In this document: one piece after another, positions 15,146-57,093 of the stretch
Position numbering within the stretch: the stretch's first letter is position 1
Layout of the letters: the number at the start of each line of letters is the position of its first letter
Source of the DNA: Patescibacteria group bacterium
GTDB lineage: Bacteria > Patescibacteriota > Patescibacteriia > Patescibacteriales > UBA12465
Length of the DNA stretch: 64,000 bases
Direction of reading: 5' to 3'
NCBI GenBank assembly: GCA_023229115.1
Contig: JALNZW010000004.1
Location: 40,197 to 104,196 of the forward strand
Notes under the pieces: generated by a model
What the model saw: the letters and a program-made list of their open reading frames with translations, nothing else
Database searches by the model: none
What the model was told of the DNA's origin: nothing
Position numbers and translations under genes: made by a program

Positions 15146-15601
15146 TTAATTTTGAGTTCTAGTAGTTCCTCCCTGTGTTTGAGAACTACTTCCCGCTGGT
15201 AAATTTCTAAATACGAAAGCCGTTATAGCATAAGCCATAATAACAACCACAACCCCAATAACTGCATTCTTTATTCTGTTTTTAGCTTGATTGACTTGAT
15301 CCTCATTTCCACCGGCCGTCATCCACTGATAACCACTGAAAATCATTAAAACTAAAAAAACAATGCCCAACAAAGATAAAACAGTTTTAATAATACTACC
15401 TATTATACTATCGGCGCTAGCCCCCGAATAACCTGACTCCCTAAAAAAAGCACCTGTCTGCGAATCTCTACTGACAGTACCCGTGAACTGATCTGATTGG
15501 TTAGGTTCATTTTGTGCCTCTAGACTTAAAGGAGAAAAAAAGAGAAAGGAAAAAAGCAAAACAAAGGAAGTTTTAATAAAAAAATTTTTAACACTTTTCA
15601 T
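15146..15601 (-). CDS. VirB2/TrbC-like pilin paralog P1
   Basis: Signal peptide, helix 1, loop GYQWMTAGGNEDQVNQAKNRIKNAVIG, helix 2, and a Gly/Ser/Thr/Gln-rich C-terminal tail. Confidence 0.75.
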   Translation of the reverse strand: MKSVKNFFIKTSFVLLFSFLFFSPLSLEAQNEPNQSDQFTGTVSRDSQTGAFFRESGYSGASADSIIGSIIKTVLSLLGIVFLVLMIFSGYQWMTAGGNEDQVNQAKNRIKNAVIGVVVVIMAYAITAFVFRNLPAGSSSQTQGGTTRTQN

Positions 15602-15611
15602 ATTTATAAAA

Positions 15612-16010
15612 TTAAAGTAAATTTGTATTCAAAAGATATTGGTCAACCAATCTCCAAATAGCAAAGGCTGAAACAACTAAAATTAAACCAATAATTGCAT
15701 TTTTTATTCTACTTTTAGCTTGACTAACTTGTTCTTCATTGCCCCCGGCCGTCATCCACTGATAACCACCTAGAATAATAAGAATTACAAAAATTATTCC
15801 CAAAAAAGAAAGGGCCGTATTAACTATTCTTCCAATAGTTCCTGCCAAACTAGTTTCATCAGCGGCAGAAAAACCAGCCAAAGAACCAGTTCTCTCTAAA
15901 CGATTAGCAATAGTGCCATTACTTATCTGAGCTAAGGCCAAAAACGGCAAAGTTAACATAGCGGTTAAAATCAAGATAAAAGAAAATTGTTTAATAGTTT
16001 TTTTTAACAT
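15612..16010 (-). CDS. VirB2/TrbC-like pilin paralog P2
   Basis: Signal peptide ending LALAQ, followed by GGYQWMTAGGNEEQVSQAKSRIKNAIIG and a second helix. Confidence 0.75.
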   Translation of the reverse strand: MLKKTIKQFSFILILTAMLTLPFLALAQISNGTIANRLERTGSLAGFSAADETSLAGTIGRIVNTALSFLGIIFVILIILGGYQWMTAGGNEEQVSQAKSRIKNAIIGLILVVSAFAIWRLVDQYLLNTNLL

Positions 16011-16032
16011 AATAAGTATTTAAATTTTAATT

Positions 16033-16437
16033 TTAATTTGGAATATCGGGGCCAGCACTTACAAAAATATTCAAAACTAGCCAGCTTAAACCGTAAGAAA
16101 GTAAAACCACCACCAAACCAACAGCCGCATTTTTAATTATTTTTTTAGCTTTATCTACTTCTTGATCATTGCCGCCAGCCATCATCCATAAAAAACCGCC
16201 ATAAATAATCAAAATACCAAAAATAACACCCAAAAAACCAAGAATAGAGGAAATAACTATACCAACAACATCTTCAATCTGAGCACCGCCACTAGTATTA
16301 AAACCCATTTTGTTGGCTGAATTATTAAGATCAAAAGCATTTCCCAGGTTTTTAGCCGAAACAGGACCAAAAGTAAAAAAACTAATCAGAAAAACAAACA
16401 AAAGAAATAATATTTTATTTTTAAAAAAAGTAAACAT
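16033..16437 (-). CDS. VirB2/TrbC-like pilin paralog P3
   Basis: Signal peptide, then GGFLWMMAGGNDQEVDKAKKIIKNAAVG and a second helix. Confidence 0.75.
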   Translation of the reverse strand: MFTFFKNKILFLLFVFLISFFTFGPVSAKNLGNAFDLNNSANKMGFNTSGGAQIEDVVGIVISSILGFLGVIFGILIIYGGFLWMMAGGNDQEVDKAKKIIKNAAVGLVVVLLSYGLSWLVLNIFVSAGPDIPN

Positions 16438-16440
16438 ATT

Positions 16441-16833
16441 TTACTGAAAATTAAAAGCGCTAATAACTAATACACTTATAGAATAAGCACTAACCACTAT
16501 AAACAAACCTATAATCGACTGTACTATTATAGATTTAGCTTTTTCAACTTGTTGATCATTACCTCGAGCTGTCATCCATAACACACCTCCATAAACAAGC
16601 AAGACAACAAAAATAACACCAATAAAAGAAATTATAGTTTGAATAACTGATCCAATTGAAGATTCTAAATCGGCACTACTTTTAAAGATTTTAGAACTAG
16701 TATGTCCAGTCTTTTCACCAGCTGAGCTTAAACCAGTTTGCTCCGAAAAATTAAAAGCATTAACAAAAAAAGGACTAAAGAAAAAAAACAAACAAAAAAC
16801 AATTATAAACATTTTTATTTTTTTCTTTTTCAT
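16441..16833 (-). CDS. VirB2/TrbC-like pilin paralog P4
   Basis: GGVLWMTARGNDQQVEKAKSIIVQSIIG. The start at M13 (16833) avoids overlap with P5; the track start is 16869. Confidence 0.7.
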   Translation of the reverse strand: MKKKKIKMFIIVFCLFFFFSPFFVNAFNFSEQTGLSSAGEKTGHTSSKIFKSSADLESSIGSVIQTIISFIGVIFVVLLVYGGVLWMTARGNDQQVEKAKSIIVQSIIGLFIVVSAYSISVLVISAFNFQ

Positions 16834-16844
16834 AAAATTAAAAA

Positions 16845-17627
16845 TTATTCTCCATATAAAGTAAGACAATCAATCCCACTGCCGCCCTGAAGTTTATCAA
16901 TTTTTGATTCATGTTCGCACAACACACGACCACAATTTCTACCCCCCATCTTTCCTAAAAAACAAAGACATAGGTCTTGTGAAAATTGTATAAAATATTG
17001 AGAAGGTTCGCTAGTATTATCTCCCCAGTCCATATTGCCATCATCCCCAAAACCACTCCAACCATCTTCATAATCATCAAAATACTCTTCTGAGGTGTTA
17101 TTATTTACATAAACATACTCACCATCGTTAATACACATTTCAAGATATTCTTGCTCCCAGTCAGCAAGATCTAACTCTTCTTCACTATTTATTTGTTCTA
17201 CCGTTGTTCCAGTGGTTCCACCAATTGTATCTTCCTCAGTAAAAACACTTTTAGTAGACTGTTCTCCTATAAACTGAACAAGAGCAAAAGAAGCAAAAAT
17301 ACAAATAATGCCAATAACCGCCCAAATCATTGTTTTTTTTGATTTATCAATTTGTTGATCATTGCCAGAGGCAGTCATCCACATAATACCAGAATAAACC
17401 ATTAGTCCTAAAAAAATCAAACCAACAAAAGAAAGAAGAAATCCAACTGTTCCACCTAAACGATCAATTAGTCCGCCACTAGATTCATTAAAAACCGATG
17501 GTAAATTTCCTCGACCGACCGTTCTTGTTAATCCATAGCTACTTTCTCTAGCCATGCTTAAAATTGGAACAAAAAGAAAAACAAATAATAATATTAGAAA
17601 AACAAATTTATTTTTAGTAAATTTCAT
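16845..17627 (-). CDS. VirB2/TrbC-like pilin paralog P5 with ~130-aa acidic, Cys-containing C-terminal extension
   Basis: Pilin core SGIMWMTASGNDQQIDKSKKTMIWAVIG followed by a D/E/W/G-rich domain with 7 Cys. ATG at 17627 (MKFTKNKFVFL...) preferred over the track start at 17684. Confidence 0.7.
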   Translation of the reverse strand: MKFTKNKFVFLILLFVFLFVPILSMARESSYGLTRTVGRGNLPSVFNESSGGLIDRLGGTVGFLLSFVGLIFLGLMVYSGIMWMTASGNDQQIDKSKKTMIWAVIGIICIFASFALVQFIGEQSTKSVFTEEDTIGGTTGTTVEQINSEEELDLADWEQEYLEMCINDGEYVYVNNNTSEEYFDDYEDGWSGFGDDGNMDWGDNTSEPSQYFIQFSQDLCLCFLGKMGGRNCGRVLCEHESKIDKLQGGSGIDCLTLYGE

Positions 17628-17640
17628 AAACTTATAATTA

Positions 17641-18054
17641 TTAACCAGCCACAATAGGGCTATTTCCAGTAAACATATTTCCAATAAAATTAGTTATGAT
17701 ATAAGCGGATAAAACAATAATAAGGCCAATTATAGCCTGAATTATTAAATTTTTTGCCCGATCAACTTGTTGTTCGTTGCCTCTGGCTATCATCCACAAT
17801 ATCCCAGCATAAATAATCAAAATCATAAAAACAACAGCAATAAAAGAAAGAATTGCTCCGATTATAACACCAACCCTACTTGAAAGATAAAAACCAGAAT
17901 CACGAGTATTAACTTCTTCTACATTAAAAGCATCTTTAGATGTGTCAGTGACAACACTATTTAAACCCCAATCACCCTTGCCACCATCAGCTAAGGAAAA
18001 ATTAGCCAATAAAAACGAAGTAAAAATCAAGGAAATTATTAATATTTTTTTCAT
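17641..18054 (-). CDS. VirB2/TrbC-like pilin paralog P6
   Basis: Signal peptide, then AGILWMIARGNEQQVDRAKNLIIQAIIG and a second helix. Confidence 0.75.
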   Translation of the reverse strand: MKKILIISLIFTSFLLANFSLADGGKGDWGLNSVVTDTSKDAFNVEEVNTRDSGFYLSSRVGVIIGAILSFIAVVFMILIIYAGILWMIARGNEQQVDRAKNLIIQAIIGLIIVLSAYIITNFIGNMFTGNSPIVAG

Positions 18055-18079
18055 AAATAAATATCAAACAAGAAATTCA

Positions 18080-18170
18080 CCATGCTTCCTAAAACAATTG
18101 ATTATTTCAGGAAGCATGGCGCCTATTTACAATAGGGCGCCAATTTCTAAATTCGAGTTTAGAAACTAAA
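18080..18170 (-). terminator. Cluster of three hairpins between P7 and P6 (terminator / mRNA-stabilising or attenuating structure)
   Basis: Three stems: CCATGCTTCC/GGAAGCATGG (18080-18089 / 18110-18119), GGCGCCTATT/AATAGGGCGCC (18118-18141, one bulge) and TTTCTAAA/TTTAGAAA (about 18148-18170). This is unusually GC-rich for this genome. Confidence 0.55.
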
Positions 18171-18180
18171 ATAAAATATT

Positions 18181-18573
18181 CTAGTTGTTGGTTGCGTCCA
18201 TTAAAGTATTTAAAACGAAGGTTGTGATTCCCCAAGCAGCTAAGATGATTACTAAGCCGACAACTCCGGCTCCTAATAATTTTTTAGCTTCACCAATTTT
18301 ATCTTCGTTACCAGCAGCAGTCATCCATTTGAAACCTCCTAACAATACTATAACTACAGCTACGATACCAAGTAAAGTTAAAACTGTATTTATAATTTGA
18401 GCGGCCATTTCTCTTGGATCTTTTTGACCTAAAGCGATACCTTCATCACCATTTTTAACGTAGTTTAAACCAAAAACGTCATCTGATGCTTGAGCACCGT
18501 TAGTTAAAGCCAAAGAAATGATTGGGAAAACAAATAAAGAAACTAATAATAAACTAATAATTTTTTTTCTCAT
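18181..18573 (-). CDS. VirB2/TrbC-like pilin paralog P7 (candidate major subunit)
   Basis: GGFKWMTAAGNEDKIGEAKKLLGAGVVG. One of only two starts I inspected with an SD-like motif, and the stronger one (AGAAAGGTGGTGACTT-ATG). Higher GC than its neighbours and followed by its own hairpin cluster. Confidence 0.8.
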   Translation of the reverse strand: MRKKIISLLLVSLFVFPIISLALTNGAQASDDVFGLNYVKNGDEGIALGQKDPREMAAQIINTVLTLLGIVAVVIVLLGGFKWMTAAGNEDKIGEAKKLLGAGVVGLVIILAAWGITTFVLNTLMDATNN

Positions 18574-42035: not shown

Positions 42036-42169
42036 TTAAAATCTTCTAATAAATTCTAAAAATAAGGCCTTTTAAAGGCTTTTACTATTGCTTAGTATAT
42101 ACCAAAAAAATGTTTTTGACAAGCCTAATTTTTTTTGTTATTATTTTCTTGCTTTAAAGCAAAACTAAA

Positions 42170-42243
42170 GGAGCGGTAGTTCAGTTGGTTAGAATGCCTG
42201 CCTGTCACGCAGGAGGTCGCGGGTTCGAGTCCCGTCCGCTCCG
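42170..42243 (+). tRNA. tRNA-Asp (anticodon GTC)
   Basis: Acceptor GGAGCGG/CCGCTCC, anticodon stem CCTGC/GCAGG with loop CTGTCAC, T-arm GCGGGTTCGAGTCCCGT, discriminator G. Confidence 0.92.
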
Positions 42244-42245
42244 CA

Positions 42246-42442
42246 GAGAATGAACGAAGTGAATAAACGAAGGAGTGGCATCAAACCAATTTATTGGTTT
42301 GATGAGGGCTCGAATGCCGGAGCGATGTGCGGAGCTAAGGCGACGCACCGCGAGGCGGGGTCGAGAGTTCTTTGTGAGCGCAACCACGTAAAACGTGGTA
42401 AGCGAACTTAGAAACTCGTGACCGAGTCCCGTCCGCTCCGCA
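42246..42442 (+). other. GC-rich 197-bp element A bounded by a 20-bp direct repeat of the tRNA-Asp 3' end (candidate structured RNA / miniature integrative-element remnant)
   Basis: CGAGTCCCGTCCGCTCCGCA occurs at 42226-42245 (inside the tRNA) and again at 42423-42442. The interior has a 12-bp hairpin CATCAAACCAAT/ATTGGTTTGATG and stems GTGCG/CGCAC and ACCACG/CGTGGT. It is homologous to 52726-52908. Confidence 0.6.
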
Positions 42443-42506
42443 AGTAAGTGGATAAAAAAATAACAAAAATATTTTACGTGACAAGTTATTTCCACTCCGC
42501 ATTTTG

Positions 42507-42578
42507 GCGGGTATCGTATAATGGCTTTTATATCAGCCTTCCAAGCTGAGGATGGGGGTTCGATTCCCCCTACCCGCT
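42507..42578 (+). tRNA. tRNA-Gly (anticodon TCC)
   Basis: Acceptor GCGGGTA/TACCCGC, anticodon stem TCAGC/GCTGA with loop CTTCCAA, T-arm GGGGGTTCGATTCCCCC. Confidence 0.9.
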
Positions 42579-42583
42579 CAAAT

Positions 42584-42616
42584 AAAAAAACAGCTACTTT
42601 CTAGCTGTTTTTTTTA
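42584..42616. terminator. Bidirectional terminator after tRNA-Gly / YibE-F-like gene
   Basis: Stem CAGCTA/TAGCTG (42591-42596 / 42602-42607) flanked by an A-run and a T-run. Confidence 0.75.
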
Positions 42617-42617
42617 T

Positions 42618-43763
42618 TTAATTAAGTCTATCTTTTTTTCTCTTATAGACAAACCACCAAGAAGCAAAGAAAGTAGACAAAGGAACAGACAAGATTATTC
42701 CTATGCTTCCGCTTAGGGCTCTTACTATTTCAGTACTAATTGCCTCACTACTAATCATTTGCTCAACACTAGTAAATGGATTTTCTGGACTAACAAATAA
42801 TATTAAAACTGGCAAAGAAACTCCGGCATAAGCTAGAAAAAGAGTATTGGTCATTGAAGCAATGTGAGAAACCCCGATTTTATGAGCCTTATTAAAAACA
42901 TCTTTCCAGTCTTGATGAGGATTAGCTTCAACTATTTGTTCAACCGCTGCAATTTGAGCTATTATTATATCATCTATTACCCCCAAAGTTCCAATAATTA
43001 CTCCCGCCAATAAAAAACCTTTAAAATTTATAACACTTTGTCCAATATTTAAAAGTATAAAAATATCTTCATTAAAGGCGCCCGACAATTTAGCTAAATT
43101 AATAAAAAGCCAAGAAAAACCTATAACTAAAGATAAACTTAAAAAAATAGACAAAGCAGATATATGAGACTTGGCATTAAAACCCTCTGTTAAATAAACG
43201 ATAAATAATAGTATTAAAAAAGAGCCAACAGAAGTAATCAAAACTGGATTAGCACCATTTAATATTTTAGGAACAATAAAAAATATTATTATTAAAAAGG
43301 TTAAAAAAAGAGAAACTACAGATCTTAAGCCCTTAAACCTACCAACCAAAATTAAAAGTAAAAAAAACAAAGACCCGATTATAATTAAAATATTTTTTCT
43401 AGAATAATCTGTTATATAATAATTATATGAATTTTCGGTCTGATTCCAAGAAGCTAAAACAAAAACTTTTTGCCCTTCTTTATAAATTTTGTTTTCTAGA
43501 ACTTCAATATTGCCAATTCCTGTAAAAATAATCTCCTTATCTTTAAACTCTTTTTCTAAGCCTAACAGGCGAACATTTTGTTGATTTATTATTCGACCAT
43601 CATCTCCTTTCTTTTCTTCCTCATCCATAATTTCCAAAACCTCAGCTTTAAAAACTATATTAGAGTTTTCTTTTGAAGAGTCGCTAGCCAAAACAGGCCT
43701 ATTAACTATAAAAAATACAAAAAATACAAAGGTAAAAACAAATACTTTTCTAATATTATCCAT
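42618..43763 (-). CDS. YibE/F-like polytopic membrane protein
   Basis: Signal/anchor, an external domain of about 110 aa, then 7-8 TM segments. The layout is typical of the YibE/F family; the family call is by architecture only. Confidence 0.5.
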   Translation of the reverse strand: MDNIRKVFVFTFVFFVFFIVNRPVLASDSSKENSNIVFKAEVLEIMDEEEKKGDDGRIINQQNVRLLGLEKEFKDKEIIFTGIGNIEVLENKIYKEGQKVFVLASWNQTENSYNYYITDYSRKNILIIIGSLFFLLLILVGRFKGLRSVVSLFLTFLIIIFFIVPKILNGANPVLITSVGSFLILLFIVYLTEGFNAKSHISALSIFLSLSLVIGFSWLFINLAKLSGAFNEDIFILLNIGQSVINFKGFLLAGVIIGTLGVIDDIIIAQIAAVEQIVEANPHQDWKDVFNKAHKIGVSHIASMTNTLFLAYAGVSLPVLILFVSPENPFTSVEQMISSEAISTEIVRALSGSIGIILSVPLSTFFASWWFVYKRKKDRLN

Positions 43764-49841: not shown

Positions 49842-50579
49842 TTAATTAATAACCTTAACCTCTGGAATGTCATCACCATTTTCTTTCTTTTTAAAAACAA
49901 TTTTTTGTTGTAAAGCTGTAAATAAAGTAGTTAAAAACCAATAAAGAGTTAGTCCGGCCGGCATAGTCATTCCGATAAAAACAGTAACCGCTGGCATTAC
50001 ATATAACATTTGCTTATTCATTATGGCCGTCATGCTTTCATCTTTAGAGCCTTTTACATCTATAGCTGGTTTTTTAGTAGTCATCATCTTGGCTTGCCAA
50101 AATTGGGCCAAACCAGCCAAAACAGCTAAAACAATGCTTTTTTCGGACAAATTAAAAAACCCTAGAGAAATTGCATTTATAGTTTCCGGGTTTTTTATGA
50201 ATGGATATAAAAGATCTAAATGATTTTGAGCAAAACCATCTCTAAAAACTCTAAAAATGGCTATAAAAAAGGGCAATTGAATTAAAAGAGGAAAACAGGA
50301 AGAAAAAGGATTAACTTTATTCTCTTTATAAAGAGCCATTAATTCTAAGCTTAAAGCTTGTTGATCTCCTTTGTGCTTCTTTTTTAGCTCATCTATTTTA
50401 GGTTGTAAGTCTTGTAATGCTTTTTGAGATTTTATGGATTTTTTAGATAAAGGAAATAATATTAATTTAACAATTAGTGTTAAAAAAATAATAGCGATAC
50501 CAAGGTCACCAAAAATATTATACAAGAAAACCAAAAGATTTAATATTGGTTGATAAAAAAAAGTTTGAAAAATTTCCAT
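49842..50579 (-). CDS. yidC: Membrane protein insertase YidC (short form)
   Basis: YidC/Oxa1 core blocks (LFPLSKKSIKSQKALQDLQPKIDELKKKHKGDQQ, NPFSSCFPLLIQLPFFIA, GLTLYWFLTTLFTALQQ). Sits in the rnpA-yidD-yidC context. Confidence 0.9.
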   Translation of the reverse strand: MEIFQTFFYQPILNLLVFLYNIFGDLGIAIIFLTLIVKLILFPLSKKSIKSQKALQDLQPKIDELKKKHKGDQQALSLELMALYKENKVNPFSSCFPLLIQLPFFIAIFRVFRDGFAQNHLDLLYPFIKNPETINAISLGFFNLSEKSIVLAVLAGLAQFWQAKMMTTKKPAIDVKGSKDESMTAIMNKQMLYVMPAVTVFIGMTMPAGLTLYWFLTTLFTALQQKIVFKKKENGDDIPEVKVIN

Positions 50580-50599
50580 ATTTTTAATTATTTTATAAT

Positions 50600-50869
50600 T
50601 TATTTAACAGGATCATGTCCTCCCTTATTAAATGGATTACATCTAATAATTCTCCAACAAGTCATTAATCCACCTTTTATAAATCCATACTTAGAAAGAG
50701 CATCAACCCCATATTGAGAGCAGGTTGGCGTAAATCGACAAAAACCATGAGGATAAAAAGATTTTAGTGGACCATGATCAAAGGAAAGCGTTTTTTGATA
50801 AATCTTTATCAAAAAAATAGCAATCCTTCTTGGCAAAAAATATATATTCCTAAAAAAACTAATTATCAT
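50600..50869 (-). CDS. yidD: Membrane protein insertion efficiency factor YidD
   Basis: [48 protein letters not shown] at 50869 preferred over the TTG at 50878. Confidence 0.9.
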
Positions 50870-51203
50870 AAACGCCAATCTTTTTAAAAGAATCTTCCAC
50901 CTCTTGGCTTAAACCAGAAAATTCTAAATTTATAATATTTTTAGTAACTATTATTATTATATCAAACCCCTTTTTTATTTGCTTTAAATCTCTATTTACA
51001 ATAGCCCTAATTCTTCTTTTTATTTTATTTCTTTCTACCGCTTTTTTGCTAATTTTAGCGGAAATTATCACGCAAAAACGACTCTCATTTAGGTCGTTTT
51101 TAAGAACTTTAAAGCCTAGGACATTACTATAAAAACTCTTGCCATTTTTAAAGGTTTTTTCTATTTCCTTGGTTTTTCTCAATCTATTGTTTTGATTAAA
51201 CAT
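50859..51203 (-). CDS. rnpA: Ribonuclease P protein component
   Basis: 114-aa basic protein ([16 protein letters not shown]...[12 protein letters not shown]) directly downstream of rpmH. Confidence 0.85.
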
Positions 51204-51227
51204 CTTGTTTATGTTTAATCTTAAAAT

Positions 51228-51365
51228 TTATTTGGTCAATTTTTTTCTCCCTTTTTGTTTTCTTCTTTTAATAATATCCTGACCATCCTTAGTTTTCATT
51301 CTCTTTAAAAATCCATGTTTTCTTTTAGCTCTTTTAGCATTTGGTTGATATGTTCTCTTTGGCAT
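51228..51365 (-). CDS. rpmH: 50S ribosomal protein L34 (not in supplied ORF track)
   Basis: Manual translation gives [45 protein letters not shown], 45 aa. This is the canonical L34 sequence pattern in the canonical position upstream of rnpA. Confidence 0.9.
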
Positions 51366-51532
51366 ACTTTTATATAAAATTATATTTTATTTTGTAAATA
51401 TCAAAACGAGACGATGTTTTCGTCTTAATTTTAATTATATGGTAAAGTTATTTTTTTGTCAATTAGTTTATTTTCTTGTTATTTTTTTATAAATAATATA
51501 AAATATTCATAATATAAAATAATTATAAACAA

Positions 51533-52114
51533 ATGATTATATCAATTAGCGGATTTCATGGATCGGGCAAGAGCACTATAGCCGAAATGTTGGCCAAAAA
51601 ATTAAATTGGCCGAGATATTATATGGGAGGACTAAGAAGAGAGGCGGCACTAAAAAGAGGAATGACCTTGGCTGAATATAACAAATTGGGAGAAACAGAT
51701 CCTTCAACAGACCTAGAGGTGGACAATTATCAAAAAGAGCTTGGGCAAATAAAAGATAATTTTATAATTGAGGGAAGAACCTCTTGGCACTTTATACCTC
51801 ACTCTTTAAAAATATATATTAACGTTGATCATAAAATAGGAGCTGAAAGAATTTTTAAAAGTTTACAGAAAAAAAATAATCGAAACGAAGACAACAATTT
51901 AAACACACTAGAAGATGTTATAAAAAGCGTTGAAGAAAGATATAAAAGTGATAAATTAAGATATAAAAAATATTTTAATATAGATGTTTATGATTTAAAA
52001 AATTACGATTTTGTTATTAATACTGACAAAATAAGCATTGATCAAGTTTTTGAAAATGTTTATTCTTTTATCAAGAAGGAGTTAGAAAAAGAGGCATTGA
52101 CAAAAAATAAATAA
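51533..52114 (+). CDS. Cytidylate kinase-like P-loop NMP kinase
   Basis: P-loop ISGFHGSGKSTIAEMLAKKL. About 190 aa, resembling archaeal-type/putative cytidylate kinases. Confidence 0.65.
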   Translation: MIISISGFHGSGKSTIAEMLAKKLNWPRYYMGGLRREAALKRGMTLAEYNKLGETDPSTDLEVDNYQKELGQIKDNFIIEGRTSWHFIPHSLKIYINVDHKIGAERIFKSLQKKNNRNEDNNLNTLEDVIKSVEERYKSDKLRYKKYFNIDVYDLKNYDFVINTDKISIDQVFENVYSFIKKELEKEALTKNK

Positions 52115-52192
52115 ACACATATTATATAGACAAGGAAAATTTTTTCCTTATTTTTTAGTGAATACTTATTTTGAGTTTATAAAAATAAATAT

Positions 52193-52537
52193 ATGCAAGA
52201 TTTAAAAGAAGTTATTAAGGAGTTAAAACCTGGAATGACTATCAGGGTTTATCAAAAAATCAAAGAATTAAACACCAAAGGAGAGGAAAAAGAAAGAGTT
52301 CAATATTTTGAAGGTATTATTATTGCCAAAAAACACGGAAGTGAAGCTGGTGGAACAATTACTGTTAGAAAGGTTTCTGATGGAATTGGAGTTGAAAAAA
52401 TATTTCCATTAAACTTACCAACCATAACCAAAATAGAAATTAAAAAAGAAGCAACTGTTAGAAGGGCAAAGCTTTCTTTCTTAAAGAAAAAGGGTTATAA
52501 AAGAAAATTAAAAGAAAGGGTTGTTAAAAAATCATAG
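52193..52537 (+). CDS. rplS: 50S ribosomal protein L19
   Basis: LKPGMTIRVYQKIKE...RVQYFEGIIIAKKHGSEAGGTITVRKVSDGIGVEKIFPLNLPTITKIEI. Confidence 0.92.
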   Translation: MQDLKEVIKELKPGMTIRVYQKIKELNTKGEEKERVQYFEGIIIAKKHGSEAGGTITVRKVSDGIGVEKIFPLNLPTITKIEIKKEATVRRAKLSFLKKKGYKRKLKERVVKKS

Positions 52538-52552
52538 TTAGTATCCCTTGGC

Positions 52553-52637
52553 GGGCGAGTGGTGAAATTGGTAGACACGCAAGCTTGAGGGGTTTGTGGC
52601 CATTGTGGCCGTGGAAGTTCAAATCTTCTCTCGCCCA
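52553..52637 (+). tRNA. tRNA-Leu (anticodon GAG)
   Basis: Acceptor GGGCGAG/CTCGCCC, anticodon stem CAAGC/GTTTG (one G-U pair) with loop TTGAGGG, long variable arm TGGCCATTGTGGCCG, T-loop TTCAAAT, discriminator A. Confidence 0.85.
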
Positions 52638-52650
52638 CAAAACACATTTA

Positions 52651-52724
52651 GGGCGCATAGCTCAGTTGGCTAGAGCACTTCGTTTACACCGAAGGGGTCC
52701 AGGGTTCGAGTCCTTGTGCGCCCA
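52651..52724 (+). tRNA. tRNA-Val (anticodon TAC)
   Basis: Acceptor GGGCGCA/TGCGCCC, anticodon stem CTTCG/CGAAG with loop TTTACAC, T-arm CAGGGTTCGAGTCCTTG. Confidence 0.9.
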
Positions 52725-52725
52725 C

Positions 52726-52908
52726 TACACAAAAATCATCCAAATTTATTTGGATGATTTTTGTTTTATGTTTATTTGTACAAGGACTCGAAAGCCGGAG
52801 GCAATGCACCCTTGTACACCGCCGATCGGGCCGGAGAGCTTAGCGAGCGCAAACTACAAAGAAGTTAGGCGAAGCTTAGTTACCGTAACCGAGTCTTTAT
52901 ACACCAAC
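52726..52908 (+). other. GC-rich element B, homolog of element A, ending in an AT-decayed copy of the tRNA-Val 3' end
   Basis: Hairpin ATCATCCAAAT/ATTTGGATGAT at about 52735-52760. Core blocks GGACTCGAAAGCCGGAGG, CACCGCC...GGAGAG, GAGCGCAA and ACCGAGTC are shared with element A. CGAGTCTTTATACACCAAC (52890-52908) matches the tRNA's CGAGTCCTTGTGCGCCCAC (52707-52725) at 14 of 19 positions, and all mismatches are GC to AT. Confidence 0.55.
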
Positions 52909-52938
52909 ATAAAAAAGACGGAAAATTTCCATCTTTTT
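52906..52938. terminator. Imperfect bidirectional terminator hairpin
   Basis: AAAAAAGACGGAAAATTTCCATCTTTTTT, with stem GGAAA/TTTCC extended by AGA/TCT, flanked by A and T runs. Lies downstream of the minus-strand pilin-FISUMP gene. Confidence 0.5.
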
Positions 52939-52953
52939 TATGTGTATGTTTAT

Positions 52954-54087
52954 TTAATCTTTTAAACAGCGAATCGAAAGAGCAAAACCATCAAGATGAA
53001 AATATCTACTAAGATTAGAATAAGTAGCCATAAAACTACGGAACCAAGAATCATCAACACCGTTTTTAGAAGATGACCAAATAATTGAAGTCGTCCCAAT
53101 ATTAAAAAAACTACCATTAGTATTAAAATAACCGGCTGGCAAAACATTAAATTCACTAACGCCAAAATTTATATGACTTTTTAAAGGTCCATCGTTCCAC
53201 AAGTCATAATTACCCACTAATTTAGAAGCAACATCCTCCCCTCTCAAGTTTGTATTATCCCAGATAGGATCGTTTAAACCATAAAAAGAGTCTGTGTTCC
53301 CTTCAATAATTTTCCATTCTTCATCTGTCGGCACATGCCAACCATCAGGACATAGCCCTTGGCTTCCTTCAGTTATAGATCCATTCATTGCAGCACTCCA
53401 CTGATAAAGCAAACCATATATATCACAATTACTAAAATCATTATTATAACAATCACACCAGCCTTCATCTGAATCATTTACCCAAGTAACAGAAGAACAA
53501 CCATTGTCATAATTTAGATTCTCAGCCATCCAAATTTGATCTCCTATTTTTACCCAATCATATTCTTGACTATCCCTTGCATCTATAAAAGTGCCTGATA
53601 TGCCAGAGAATGGATCTTGTGGTTCTTCTTCTCCGCCTGATTCACTGCTACCAAATATTATTCCTCCCGGAGTCATTTGTTTAGCTCCTTCTGGTAGGTC
53701 GGATACTTGTTTACCAGTACAGAAATCAATAGTGTAAGTAGCTCCATTATTTTGAGGTATGTAGGTATAAGTATTAGAAGCTTCTAGACAATCTCCATCA
53801 GCGGGGGTAGGGGCAGTTGGAATAGAGTACATAAATGTTTCTTGAGAAGTAGAAGAAACTATAGAGCCACTATTCCATTCTTCTTGAGTGGGATATCTTC
53901 CATACTTATTAGCAAATAATTCCAGAGCTGTATGTATTTGTTTCATGTCAGCCATTCTTTTGGCATCTCTAGCATTTTGTCGTGCTTGCTGTAGAGCGAC
54001 AACAGCTAAAGTAGCCAGTATACCAATAATAGCGATTACCACTAAGAGCTCAATTAATGTAAAGGCTCTTTTCTTAGTGACTAACAT
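52954..54087 (-). CDS. Type IV pilin-like protein (prepilin N-terminal methylation motif) fused to a FISUMP (Fibrobacter succinogenes major paralogous) domain
   Basis: N-terminus [27 protein letters not shown] (class III signal with E+5). C-terminal half [22 protein letters not shown]...[10 protein letters not shown]...[17 protein letters not shown] matches the FISUMP/TIGR02145 pattern. Confidence 0.8.
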
Positions 54088-54304
54088 AATGTTTGATTTA
54101 TTTTTTTAAGTGCCAGTGTCTAAAAGAGGTGTTGTTTATATTTATATTATAGCAGAAAAATAGATTAATAAAAAATTATTTTCTATAAAAAAGAAAAATA
54201 AATTTATTCACATCTTATAAACAATTGCTAAACAAAAAAAGTGATTGTTCAAACTTGTTTTTTTTACTATAATAGGATTAATTTTTAAACTTAAGAAAAG
54301 AACT

Positions 54305-55681
54305 ATGACCAACGATCAAATTTGGCAAGCCGTTCTTGGCGAACTAGAGATAGGAATATCCAGGGCTAACTTTATTACCTGGTTTAAAAACACTTTTATA
54401 TACAGTATAGAAGAAGAAATAGTCACAATCTCTGTGCCCAATGATTTTGCCAAAAGATGGTTGGAACAAAAATATTGCAAAGCCATAAAATCTTCTCTCG
54501 AAAAAATAACTGAAAAAAAAATAAAAGAAATTATTTATAAAATAAATTTAGAAAAAAAAGAAGAGTCAAAAGAAGATAAAAAAAACCCAGGAGAAATTAA
54601 AACAAAAATTAAAGAAGAAATTAACAACACCCCTTGTGAACAAAAAACAAATTTGGGAAATTCTGGCCTTAACCCAAAATATTCTTTTAATAGTTTTATT
54701 ATAGGAAAAGCCAACGAATTAGCCTGCGCTGCTTGCCAAGCAATTATTAAAAACCCGGGGAAGTCATATAATCCTCTTTTTATTTATGGTGGAGTTGGTT
54801 TAGGAAAAACTCATTTATTACAAGCAGTTGGAAATGAGTTTATAATAATGAACAAAAAAGTTTTATATACGACCAGCGAACAATTTACCAATAATTATAT
54901 TGACTCCATTAAAAGTGGGCGTGCCAAAGAGTTTAAAAATTTATATAGAAATGTAGATCTTCTTTTAATAGATGATGTTCAATTCATGGGCGGAAAAGAT
55001 GGAACTCAAGAAGAATTTTTTCACACTTTTAATCAATTACAACAAGGAGATAAACAAATTATATTATCTTCCGATAGACCACCCAAAGCCATCCCAGCTA
55101 TTGAAAAAAGACTTATCTCTAGATTTGAATCTGGAATGGTGGCTGATATTGGAAAACCAGATGTTGAAACTAAAATAGCTATATTAGAAAAAAAGGCCAG
55201 AGAAAGAAATTATATATTAGAGGAAGAAATATTAAAATATATTTCTAATAGTATTCAAAACAACATCAGAGAATTAGAAGGCGCCCTTAACAAAGTTATT
55301 GCTTATCATGAATTTCACAACATAAGCCCAAACATAAAAACAGTAAAAAACATTTTAAATGATTTAACAAATAACAACCAAATTAAACCAATAATACCAA
55401 AAGATATAATTGAAGTTGTTTGCCAATATTATAATATAAGCAACAAAGACATGCTGGGAGAAAAAAGAAAAAAAGAATTAGTACTTCCCAGACAAGTGGC
55501 TATTTTCTTAATGAGAGAAGAACTCAGCACCTCTTATCCAAGCATTGGTGAAGAATTAGGGGGAAGAGACCACACAACCGCGATTCACTCTTACAACAAA
55601 ATAAATAAAGAAAAAGAAGAAAACGAAAAATTAAACCAAGAAATAATATCTATTAAACAACTTTTATATGGATCACTTTAG
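54305..55681 (+). CDS. dnaA: Chromosomal replication initiator protein DnaA
   Basis: Contains IWQAVLGELE..., Walker A GGVGLGKTHLLQA, box VII/sensor regions, and the C-terminal DNA-binding helix GGRDHTTAIHSYNKI. ATG at 54305 preferred over the track start at 54245. Confidence 0.93.
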   Translation: MTNDQIWQAVLGELEIGISRANFITWFKNTFIYSIEEEIVTISVPNDFAKRWLEQKYCKAIKSSLEKITEKKIKEIIYKINLEKKEESKEDKKNPGEIKTKIKEEINNTPCEQKTNLGNSGLNPKYSFNSFIIGKANELACAACQAIIKNPGKSYNPLFIYGGVGLGKTHLLQAVGNEFIIMNKKVLYTTSEQFTNNYIDSIKSGRAKEFKNLYRNVDLLLIDDVQFMGGKDGTQEEFFHTFNQLQQGDKQIILSSDRPPKAIPAIEKRLISRFESGMVADIGKPDVETKIAILEKKARERNYILEEEILKYISNSIQNNIRELEGALNKVIAYHEFHNISPNIKTVKNILNDLTNNNQIKPIIPKDIIEVVCQYYNISNKDMLGEKRKKELVLPRQVAIFLMREELSTSYPSIGEELGGRDHTTAIHSYNKINKEKEENEKLNQEIISIKQLLYGSL

Positions 55682-55968
55682 CTGTTATTAAAATCTTAAA
55701 AACTAAAATTAATCTGTTGATATCTGGTTTATAAATAATAATTTTTTTGTGTAAAAGATATTTAAAACTTCTAACAACTTGTTAACAAAAAAAGTAAAAA
55801 AATTTTTATCAACAAAAAGTCATAGTTAAGTAAGAAATAAAACACAAGCAAGTTAACAGCCAAAATTTAAAAAAAGACCAATTAAAAGAAACAAAATTAA
55901 CAAAAACAAAAGTTATTAACAGGCCTTATTATTATTATTAGTTTATATATATAAATTATACAAAAAAT
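55682..55968. other. Candidate oriC (dnaA-dnaN spacer with DnaA-box-like repeats and AT-rich unwinding region)
   Basis: Box-like 9-mers: TGTTGATAT (55715-55723, reverse orientation), TTGTTAACA (55779-55787), TTATCAACA (55806-55814), AAGTTAACA (55850-55858), AAATTAACA (55894-55902), TTATTAACA (55913-55921). An ATTATTATTATTAGTTTATATATATAAATTATA tract follows at 55928-55960. Confidence 0.5.
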
Positions 55969-57093
55969 ATGAAGCTAACCAGTTTGAAAGAAAATTTAAA
56001 ACAAGGTTTATCTATTGTTGGACATCTAACAACCAAAAATATAAATTTACCAATTCTTAATAATATTCTTTTTAGAGCAAAAAAAGAAGGACTAGAACTA
56101 ATTTCAACTAATTTAGAAATAAGTATTGTTCATTTTTTAAGATCCAAGGTTGATCAAGAAGGTGAAATAGCAATTGATTCTAAAATAATAAACGATTATG
56201 TTTCTTTGTTGCCAGAAGAAAAAATAGAAATAGAAACTGTTAATGACGAGTTAAAAATAAAATGTAAAAACTATAAAACAAAAATAAACACTCAAAACAG
56301 TAAAGACTTTCCACTTATTCCGGTTGTTGAAAATGAAAATTGTTTTTATGTAAAAACAGATGAATTTAAAAAAGCCGTAGGAAGTGTTTCTTTTGCAGTT
56401 GCCCCTAGTGATGGTCGGCCAGAGATATCGGGAATATTTTTTTCTTTAATAAATAAAAATATTTTTTTAGTTGCGACCGATAGTTATCGTTTAGCCGAAA
56501 AAAGTATTTCTTTTACTTCTGATAAAAATTTAGATGACAAAAAATTTATAGTTCCAGCTAAAACAATTCAAGAGGTTATTAGAGTGTTAAATAATTTTAA
56601 AGATGATGAACAAATAGAAAATGTGGATAATATAAAAATTTGTTTTAATGAAAATCAAATTTCTTTTTCCTTTGGTTCTTCTTTTTTGATTTCTAGATTG
56701 ATCATTGGAAGTTATCCAGATTATAAACAAATAATTCCAAACAATAAAAAAACTGAGATTTTAGTTAATAGGTCTGAAATTATTAGAGCAATAAAAGCGG
56801 CTGGACTTTTTTCTAAAACAGGAATAAATGATGTTGGTTTATCAAGTAAAAAAGATAAATTAATTGTTTTCTCTAATTCCTCTCAACTTGGAGAAAACTT
56901 TGTTGAAATTGATTGTAAAACAAAAGGAGAAGAAATGGAATTGTTTATAAATTATAAATATCTTTTAGACGGTTTAAATAATATTTCAGAAGAAGAAATT
57001 CTTTTATCTTTTTTAGATAGAAATACTCCCTGTAAAATAGAGACAAAGAAAGATGATAAGTTTTTATATATTGTTATGCCGATAAGACAATAA
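55969..57093 (+). CDS. dnaN: DNA polymerase III beta sliding clamp
   Basis: 374 aa directly after dnaA with a three-domain clamp pattern (LPILNNILF..., ATDSYRLAE, YIVMPIR C-terminus). Confidence 0.9.
   Translation: MKLTSLKENLKQGLSIVGHLTTKNINLPILNNILFRAKKEGLELISTNLEISIVHFLRSKVDQEGEIAIDSKIINDYVSLLPEEKIEIETVNDELKIKCKNYKTKINTQNSKDFPLIPVVENENCFYVKTDEFKKAVGSVSFAVAPSDGRPEISGIFFSLINKNIFLVATDSYRLAEKSISFTSDKNLDDKKFIVPAKTIQEVIRVLNNFKDDEQIENVDNIKICFNENQISFSFGSSFLISRLIIGSYPDYKQIIPNNKKTEILVNRSEIIRAIKAAGLFSKTGINDVGLSSKKDKLIVFSNSSQLGENFVEIDCKTKGEEMELFINYKYLLDGLNNISEEEILLSFLDRNTPCKIETKKDDKFLYIVMPIRQ

Follow-up and report, generated by a model that had tools for sequence, protein, structure and literature searches.

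The stretch of DNA examined in this study (hereafter the window) comprises 64,000 nucleotides of contig JALNZW010000004.1 from a Patescibacteria group bacterium (assembly GCA_023229115.1). Its tRNA-Asp gene is followed by a GC-rich, structured unit that we designate E1 (42246-42442; this and the other parts described at the tRNA-Asp and tRNA-Val sites lie on the plus strand unless indicated otherwise). E1 is probably an intact and recent copy of a family of protein-less insertions, approximately 100-200 nt in length, which occupy the 3' ends of tRNA and transfer-messenger RNA (tmRNA) genes in Patescibacteria and Elusimicrobia. The family is widespread in candidate-phyla-radiation (CPR) bacteria and apparently undescribed.

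The insertion site in the window and in relatives

The host gene is tRNA-Asp(GTC) at 42170-42244 (ARAGORN; Rfam tRNA, 72 bits). Its positions 56-75, running from C56 of the T-loop to G73 and the following CA, form the first repeat copy, X1 (42226-42245). An identical second copy, X2 (42423-42442), closes the unit and provides the 3' strand of helix P1 and of an acceptor-like helix. The 20-mer concerned, CGAGTCCCGTCCGCTCCGCA, has exactly two occurrences, and 100 shuffles yielded no match to it even with three mismatches allowed, confirming the exact repeat of the tRNA-Asp 3' end that had been reported in a first-pass annotation of this DNA. The same annotation placed 197 bp between the repeats; this value stands as the repeat period, but the sequence separating the two copies is 177 bp long. 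The unit had rightly been called GC-rich, with a GC content of 0.50-0.61 vs. 0.15-0.39 in the surrounding AT-rich DNA. A decayed third copy of the tRNA end, matching at 11 of 16 positions with all five mismatches G/C to A/T, had also been described. This is borne out, and the copy is in fact longer, spanning 19 nt, AAGTTATTTCCACTCCGCA (42483-42501), with every difference from the tRNA end being G/C to A/T. Upstream of it lies GTGAC (42478-42482), which in intact cores is the final, conserved helix strand; 42443-42501 is therefore the 3' stump of an older unit, with a linker relic, AAGTGGAT, at 42446-42453 and the third copy as its decayed repeat, X3. The first-pass annotation had omitted this stump, as well as the complementarity between the host tRNA and the 5' strand of the closing helix, and the state of the second copy in the window, E2, which is a decaying pseudo-element.

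A flanking gene of the YibE/F family assigns the organism to Falkowbacteria-like Patescibacteria. The same locus was fetched from two relatives, in which a YibE/F-family protein encoded by a flanking gene is 90% and 75% identical to that of the window. In these relatives (L250 and L254), the tRNA-Asp end ...CCGCA is joined directly to TTTTA and tRNA-Gly, forming an empty site. The window carries 256 extra bp (42246-42501) exactly at this point, and the original flank, TTTT(G/A) followed by tRNA-Gly, is found directly 3' of the third copy, as in the empty sites. Given the exact empty site, 42246-42501 is an insertion consisting of the intact 197-bp unit E1 and the 59-bp older stump, and this insertion is polymorphic among close relatives.

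From 29 cores, a covariance model was constructed that recognised E1 with 70.7 bits and E2 (52707-52908) with 23 bits, and nothing else in the window. E2 is situated after tRNA-Val(TAC), where a homologue had already been suspected; it is real, though degraded. It consists of X1 (52707-52725), a terminator-like hairpin (52729-52764), the X' segment GTACAAGGACTCG (52773-52785), a core extending to 52889 and a decayed X2 (52890-52908). E1 and E2 share the blocks TCGAA-N-GCCGGAG, GAGCGCAA, GCGAA and ACCGAGTC, and represent one subtype at different tRNAs. In the 75% relative, the E2 orthologue (L260, 1492-1908) was found to be intact, with X2 identical to X1 and a score of 58 bits. Nearly all differences between the two orthologues are G/C to A/T in E2, and the adjoining AT-rich hairpin is almost unchanged. 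The 90% relative (L257, 977-1223) presents a precise empty tRNA-Val site with the original terminator. With the unit intact in L260, decayed in the window and absent from L257, parsimony indicates a precise loss in the L257 lineage, and single units can thus be lost precisely. Furthermore, new units enter beside the tRNA, and older ones are pushed downstream and decay by GC-to-AT change, as seen at 42443-42501 and in E2.

Concerning expression, a predicted sigma-70-like promoter, TTGACA-17-TATTAT (42116-42144; 11 of 12 consensus matches and an extended -10 TG), lies upstream of tRNA-Asp and tRNA-Gly. The tRNA-Gly(TCC) gene (42507-42579; ARAGORN) is followed on its 3' side by the sole predicted terminator on the plus strand (42584-42614). 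E1 should therefore be co-transcribed with the two tRNAs, being located between the only good promoter and the only plus-strand terminator, both of which are called from consensus matches.

Two further observations concern the genomic surroundings. E2 is located approximately 1.3 kb upstream of dnaA, in the replication-origin neighbourhood of the window (49842-57093), which contains yidC, an rnpA/yidD-like pair, dnaA (54245-55681) and dnaN (55969-57093). The 90% relatives also differ by an island in L257 (13157-16761) encoding two serine recombinases (Resolvase/Recombinase/Zn_ribbon_recom) and an AAA_25 protein. It is found just past a 176-aa methyltransferase-like gene, near tRNA-His and tRNA-Arg, and the window is without it (equivalent position approximately 40.1-40.4 kb).

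Anatomy and fold of the unit

The layout of the family consists of X1, a spacer, the segment X', a three-way-junction core (J1/2, P2, J2/3 and P3) and X2. The spacer takes one of two forms: a terminator-like hairpin, or a linker containing GAACGAAGUGA and, after it, a hairpin, P0, whose loop is often AACUGCUU. In the minimal unit of approximately 100 nt (L156) the spacer measures 4 nt only. X' can pair with the tRNA from roughly position 54-56 to 62-65; in some copies its complementarity takes in the whole 3' end and is split by P0.

In E1, the linker (42246-42271) contains the recurrent motif GAACGAAGTGAAT (42252-42264), which is also found after the tRNA in L130, L131, L133, L148, L176, L180, L192, L229 and others. 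Next comes GGAGTGG (42272-42278), a mimic of the tRNA 5' acceptor strand, which pairs with CCGCTCC (42433-42439) in the outer 7-bp helix of the minimum-free-energy (MFE) fold. The P0 hairpin CATCAAACCAAT/ATTGGTTTGATG (42279-42304) cannot be regarded as a terminator because no U-tract follows. X', here GGGCTCG (42306-42312), forms the 5' strand of P1 and is complementary to tRNA positions 56-59 and 61-63. The segment 42313-42358 comprises J1/2 (AAT), P2 (GCC...GGC, with an invariant GGA/GA internal loop and the inner stem GTGCG/CGCAC) and J2/3 (GG). P3 is a long hairpin (42359-42423) with the base GGTCG/TGACC including a conserved G.U, the internal loops GAGCGCAA/AAGCGAA and the apical stem ACCACG/CGTGGT; it ends in GTGAC, followed by C56 of X2, and all 14 of its pairs show double changes. 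The P0 hairpin and the stems GTGCG/CGCAC and ACCACG/CGTGGT, already pointed out in the first-pass annotation, are all present in the MFE fold. In this fold the acceptor-like 7-bp stem stacks on P1, so that the unit mimics the "top half" of a tRNA with G73-CA single-stranded. A perfect 7/7 acceptor complement was detected in 25% of the copies vs. 3.7% of shuffles, usually 25-26 nt upstream of P1.

The family consensus of the core reads G-A-A-N in J1/2, GCC/GGC in P2, closing the invariant GGA/GA loop and a variable stem-loop, and GG in J2/3. P3 has the base GGUCG/UGACC with the conserved G.U and a variable hairpin, often with an A-N-Y-A tetraloop at its end. The long-P3 subtype comprises E1, E2 and the Falkowbacteria copies, and includes L146, L171, L207, L225, L241 and L260. 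In a second subtype GGUGCCCAG...CGAGGG(A) replaces the P3 base, and one subtype of the family is marked by GGTGCCCAG. Of 53 pairs examined, 47 have a repeat that begins with tRNA position 56, five with 57 and one with 55, and in most cases it ends at 74-77. Since element-free tRNA genes mostly read N73-C-A, the true right edge is probably N73 or C74. In 135 such genes (L130-L249), the discriminator was followed by C-A-N in 77 and by CCA in 30, and a one-C "CA" tail seems to be the norm.

Two local features of some copies deserve mention. In L151, L167 and L177 (unit 2), a recurrent mini-insert of 10-12 nt, (A/G)GTGTACTCAC, separates GTGAC-CGA(N) from the remainder of the downstream tRNA-end copy, and related forms occur in L143, L132 and L205; it resembles an additional small hairpin or an insertion of second order. 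In addition, UGCU within the P0 loop AACUGCUU is complementary to the AGCA tetraloop at the tip of P2 or P3 in many copies (e.g., L130, L131, L148, L157, L176 and L180). Judging from this complementarity, the P0 loop and the AGCA tetraloop may form a kissing contact; L145, however, has ACUACU alongside AGCA.

The core fold is conserved by covariation on the tRNA strand. The plus strand of E1 folds with -85.2 kcal/mol (z = -6.6) vs. -68.8 kcal/mol (z = -4.9) for the minus strand, and the tRNA strand folded better than the opposite one in 71 of 75 copies. Among 87 copies aligned to the model, standard pairs occupy 93.6% of the cells vs. 70.9% after shuffling, and the covariation score of 0.557 (0.151 shuffled) was reached by none of 500 shuffles. 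Sliding the partners by 1-3 columns reduced pairing to 22-48%. Double changes were found in 20 of 24 pairs in this alignment, and in 15 of 24 in a MAFFT alignment that was not fitted to the model. For example, the P1 pair opposite T-loop N59 covaries (UA 33, AU 24, CG 14, GC 6). Copies behind TTCAAAT T-loops carry GGAUUUG, so that P1 tracks R57 there, and P2 switches from GCC/GGC to GAC/GUC or GGC/GCC. At one pair of P3, 65 of the 76 copies with letters at both positions have G.U. The G.U pairs, the plus-strand asymmetry and the covariation together indicate that selection acts on one strand, in the orientation of the tRNA, the simplest candidate being RNA.

Hosts, target genes and neighbours of the family

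A scan of one genome per species with the pattern GTTCGANTCC-N60-90-TCGAANGCCGGAG returned at least 120 loci, nearly all behind a tRNA or tmRNA gene. They come almost entirely from CPR genome bins and are distributed across many Patescibacteria lineages. The listed loci represent Saccharibacteria, Paceibacteria/Parcubacteria groups, Gracilibacteria, Woesebacteria, Uhr-, Kaiser-, Falkow- and Magasanikbacteria, and others. Seven Elusimicrobia bins and some bins labelled Gammaproteobacteria (labels unverified) were also among them, and three to four of the listed loci are chance matches (L144, L150, L228). An exact tRNA-end repeat of at least 15 nt follows the core in 45 listed loci, and a recognisable one in 83. 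With the covariance model, 100 of the listed loci yielded 116 matches, many of them beyond those selected by the pattern; pattern and model together revealed more than 120 further copies. Of the model matches, 115 are not truncated by a locus end, and 97 of these are located 6-74 nt 3' of a same-strand tRNA, with 18 amino-acid specificities represented; the remaining ones are mostly second or third units of tandem arrays. The 3' end of the tmRNA gene (ssrA) was also found to be occupied, in L220 (89-674), in L200 (1168-1871, two tandem units) and in L247 (4813-5342, a pattern match). These tmRNA insertions indicate that the target extends beyond tRNAs to any gene ending in a T-arm and acceptor strand. 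An initial metagenome scan with a stricter pattern had returned six matches with one true homologue, L124, downstream of tRNA-Ser.

Within one genome, paralogues occupy different tRNAs, each with its own X'/X. In L199, for instance, the copies at tRNA-Gly and tRNA-Pro have a nearly identical P3 (one mismatch in about 45 nt, by eye). In the window, two of the ten tRNAs carry an element. Arrays with mixed subtypes and distal decay were observed in L177, L133/L138 and L200, and the window, with E1 intact and the distal stump decayed, follows this trend.

One locus deviates from the general layout. The composite behind tRNA-Ala in L227 (900-2160, minus strand) consists of a normal unit, a segment of approximately 900 bp, a scrambled core ending in GTGAC and a partial third tRNA-end copy. 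The segment holds a gene in reverse orientation for a 208-aa NYN-domain (PIN-like nuclease) protein, and the composite may be a cargo-carrying, cassette-like version; this gene did not recur at the other copies. In L160 (3962-4053), ARAGORN called a 92-nt "tRNA-???" with a four-base anticodon (ccag), which may be of quadruplet type, intron-containing or a false call.

Searches for carriers of the unit were negative. The T-arm-anchored pattern gave three chance matches in viral contigs, two core patterns gave 92 viral loci with one marginal model match at 24 bits, and BLASTN of E1 against plasmids and phages returned nothing. The pattern GCCGGAG...GAGCGCAA...GCGAA proved too loose, as 120 chance matches were listed in GC-rich viral contigs without an nhmmer match. 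Many of the viral contigs L261-L340 contain GCCGGAG-N6-GAGGCNGGGTCG over the same 25-nt span with no match to the element model, which is probably a conserved coding motif of a GC-rich phage gene.

With regard to enzymes, a Pfam scan of 46 window ORFs revealed no integrase or recombinase, reverse transcriptase, transposase or HUH protein, and the neighbours of E1 are housekeeping genes; the earlier description of the unit as integrase-less holds, both inside it and nearby. All-against-all clustering of 1723 ORFs from 120 listed loci gave families present in at most 12 of the 120 loci, all of them housekeeping. The unit itself is not coding. The 96-aa antisense ORF across it, earlier considered spurious, and two other overlapping ORFs have no Pfam match, and a 53-aa plus-strand ORF starting from ATGAACGAAGTG is unconserved, since the motif meets stops in other copies. 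Elsewhere in the window, a run of small ORFs (15146-18573, minus strand), one of which has a T4SS_pilin domain (16845-17684), may be a pilin or secretion cluster.

Comparison with Rfam 15 gave no family match to E1 at the gathering threshold in a scan of the whole window, and at E-values up to 10 in 42100-42650 only chance-level overlaps with the unit, below 14 bits. In 18 further element-bearing loci, only tRNA and tmRNA were matched, and neither overlapped the element. No curated family thus matched the core, including group I and II introns, hammerhead, HDV-like, twister, pistol, hatchet and Y-RNA-like RNAs. The hammerhead ribozyme, a three-way junction with GAA and UGA, was rejected on inspection of the alignment, as J2/3 is GG, CUGANGA is absent and G follows P2 in 84 of 87 copies. 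Resemblances to hairpin and HDV-like ribozymes are compositional only. A tRNA-like structure (tmRNA TLD, viral TLS or Y-RNA-like) does not fit either. E1 has no T-arm, since T-loop nucleotides 56-60 are paired in P1, and the acceptor mimic is present in only about 25-40% of the copies.

Two DNA-level categories also fit poorly. In miniature inverted-repeat elements (MITEs) and DDE transposons, short duplications of 2-10 bp arise at unrelated sites; here the repeat measures 19-20 nt, invariably corresponds to positions 56-74 of a tRNA or tmRNA and is confined to the tRNA strand. X' and X do form an inverted repeat, which is target-derived and differs between copies; among the loci, viral contigs, phages and plasmids searched, no autonomous, transposase-encoding partner turned up. 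An integron cassette (attC) is not supported, as there is no integrase at the arrays and the junction is GTGAC/CGA, not GTTRRRY. Full-text literature searching yielded no published description of the element. The nearest published work concerns group I introns in the anticodon loop (35/36) of Patescibacteria tRNA genes (PMC13011429).

Proposed mechanism, alternatives and relation to known systems

The first-pass annotation had offered a miniature non-autonomous integrative element and a structured non-coding RNA (ncRNA) propagating with a tRNA 3' end as separate options. Given the insertion, the large family, the missing integrase and the covarying tRNA-strand structure, each is partly right, and the two are probably one and the same. 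Displaced copies decay and intact ones are conserved across distant lineages; selection thus seems to act on propagation, with the fold as a mobility module. A joint reading, to which we give somewhat less than an even chance, is that the RNA fold is a cis-acting mobility module in which X' serves as a guide. X' would select a tRNA or tmRNA whose positions 56-6x pair with it, and an unlinked, trans-acting enzyme, less likely the RNA itself, would make the crossover at T-loop position 55/56, leaving segment 56-74 on both sides of the insert. Recombination between X1 and X2 would remove the unit precisely. After insertion, the pairing of X' with X2 in P1 would sequester X' and prevent the unfolding of the neighbouring tRNA. 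Guidance by X' is favoured because X' matches host-specific T-stem bases, beyond the universal T-loop. A bolder version, which we regard as possible but doubtful, is RNA-directed insertion, in which the three-way-junction RNA would pick the target by pairing and join in the chemistry, as a recombinase guide or cofactor or as a ribozyme.

Several points weigh against this interpretation. No enzyme was found among the window ORFs or recurrent neighbours, and the guide role of X' would follow from complementarity alone. X' differs at several positions between copies, and the model would have to account for the joint re-specification of X' and X when the element jumps to another tRNA. CCA was found after X2 in 16 of 53 cases, after X1 in 13 of 53 and in 30 of 135 element-free tRNA genes, i.e., without enrichment, and this disfavours the straightforward capture of mature tRNA ends as RNA. 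In many units, transcription of the core should be reduced by a terminator-like hairpin situated between tRNA and core. Most copies were collected with a pattern fixing TCGAANGCCGGAG, and the invariance of this block is therefore overstated; the nine of 87 aligned copies from outside the pattern vary there. Finally, the intact E2 orthologue in the 75% relative could mean host-level selection.

Integrases of the T-loop class, acting at tRNA and tmRNA genes, were reportedly treated by Williams in 2002. Mycobacteriophage Ms6, at a tRNA-Ala T-loop, is an example of the class (PMC1762012). The direct repeat from T-loop to 3' end, the use of tRNA and tmRNA, the precise empty sites and the reversibility form the classical footprint of such enzymes. 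Accordingly, the unit might be a DNA-level miniature att element, a circle with one 56-74 copy that is mobilised by a T-loop-class tyrosine integrase encoded elsewhere, the fold being incidental or serving a secondary role after insertion, e.g., as a terminator or processing signal; many units do supply their own terminator for the tRNA. We nevertheless consider this unlikely. One core at 18 tRNA specificities and tmRNA would need a very promiscuous integrase or many of them, and if a Campbell-type crossover at 55/56 hit a non-cognate tRNA, the product would have a chimeric acceptor stem and would probably be dead. The G.U pairs, the plus-strand asymmetry, the invariant purine-rich junctions and the covariation speak for single-strand selection rather than duplex arm sites. 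Furthermore, no integrase was seen near the approximately 120 listed loci or in the window, and the searched viral contigs, phages and plasmids yielded no copies. The positions at which X1 and X2 differ (L142, L155 and C69 in the window) do not separate Campbell-type integration from staggered-cut duplication. The proposal that the unit is the conserved arm of a larger excised or deleted genomic island shares the duplicated tRNA 3' end, and L227, with its NYN gene between X2 and a degenerate core plus X3, shows that larger X-bounded segments exist. It is hardly credible, however, for more than 100 copies that have the same compact layout of 100-200 nt without island genes. Filled and empty sites differ by units exactly, arrays combine mixed subtypes, and a minimal unit of about 100 nt with a 4-nt linker exists (L156); this option of the first-pass annotation is therefore abandoned.

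Two other explanations, both of which we judge quite improbable, start from the RNA. In a retroelement-like route, processed RNA would be joined to or primed on the tRNA and reverse-transcribed, and the cDNA would recombine via the tRNA body and X2. [quoted passage not shown] Against this, no reverse transcriptase is present in the window or near any listed copy, and group II introns, and hence their reverse transcriptases, are reported to be absent from Patescibacteria (PMC13011429). The missing CCA excess after X2 and the terminator-like hairpins upstream of many cores also argue against it. Alternatively, the unit might be a host-beneficial cis-acting RNA spread by duplication, either controlling tRNA folding, processing or decay by switching between X1, X' and X2 or acting as a tRNA-like decoy. 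With X1, X' and X2 as mutually exclusive pairing partners, the unit is laid out like a switch, the strong conservation of its junction nucleotides resembles that of RNAs which bind ligands or proteins, and the intact E2 orthologue persists in the 75% relative. Yet presence varies between 90%-identical relatives, only two of the ten window tRNAs carry the element, and tandem arrays of different subtypes occur at one tRNA. In addition, E2 and the stump decay rapidly by GC-to-AT change, with no sign of constraint in the window genome.

Patescibacteria have tiny genomes with few recognised mobile elements, and the family is found in a large share of their lineages, often in several copies per genome. 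Annotation pipelines miss it, since neither an Rfam model nor an ORF exists to flag it and its size is below the reach of island finders. The element combines two features usually encountered separately, the footprint of tRNA-site integration and a covarying RNA fold in which the target's complement is included. Should the RNA guide or catalyse insertion, the element would represent a programmable insertion system of very small size as well as a new class of ribozyme or RNA cofactor. Even if an ordinary recombinase mobilises it, the element would be useful for tracing recent recombination in uncultured lineages, would give rise to mis-annotated ORFs and tRNA 3' pseudo-fragments, and would form a predicted transcribed spacer in tRNA operons for tRNA-processing enzymes to handle. 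Cultivable Saccharibacteria make the question experimentally approachable.

As far as its sequence allows a judgement, the element would be a form of non-autonomous site-specific insertion element. Each family compared has a defining feature that it lacks, since it shows no integrase, no short generic target-site duplication, no attI or IntI, no splicing and no recombinase gene. With T-loop-class integrative elements (phages, integrative and conjugative elements (ICEs) and islands, Ms6 at the tRNA-Ala T-loop, and integrase-less CIME-like elements), it shares the direct repeat from T-loop to 3' end, tRNA and tmRNA targets, an intact tRNA, precise empty sites, reversible loss and arrays at one gene. 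Unlike them, it measures 100-200 nt, has no integrase in cis or nearby and uses one core at 18 or more tRNA specificities. It also has a covarying single-strand fold with G.U pairs and invariant junctions, as well as an inverted target copy (X'). Integron attC sites and elements that exploit Xer through folded single strands (CTX phage) likewise put stem structure over sequence, are closed by an imperfect inverted repeat, grow arrays nearest the primary site and usually have no recombinase gene in the unit; a possible cargo unit is found in L227. In contrast to attC, the arrays described here have no adjacent IntI/attI and no GTTRRRY, the primary site is the tRNA T-loop, the junctions are strongly conserved in sequence and a target segment of 19-20 nt is duplicated.

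REP/REPIN (RAYT) and IS200/IS605 palindromic mini-elements are also small, GC-rich, hairpin-forming and protein-less repeats of intergenic DNA on the downstream side of genes, and are presumably moved by a single unlinked enzyme; in this economy the element recalls MITEs and attC cassettes as well. In IS200/IS605, the cleavage sites are chosen by pairing with an internal guide segment, which may be compared with X'. REPs, however, measure 20-40 nt, are not tRNA-specific and show no target duplication, whereas in our case no RAYT or TnpA was seen and the core is a three-way junction. The group I introns of Patescibacteria tRNA genes are, like the element, protein-less, structured, GC-rich RNAs with an internal segment that pairs with the flanking tRNA. 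They reside in the anticodon loop (35/36), however, are spliced and cause no target duplication (PMC13011429). The element has no group I match, its core is far too small, and the tRNA upstream of it is already complete. Finally, IS110 bridge RNA and the EBS/IBS pairing of group II introns also involve a structured ncRNA with a target-complementary segment, so that changing the segment changes the target in principle. The element differs from them in having no recombinase or intron-encoded protein, a non-homologous fold and a flanking repeat of 19-20 nt, and the resemblance to these target-choosing RNAs would be one of functional analogy only.

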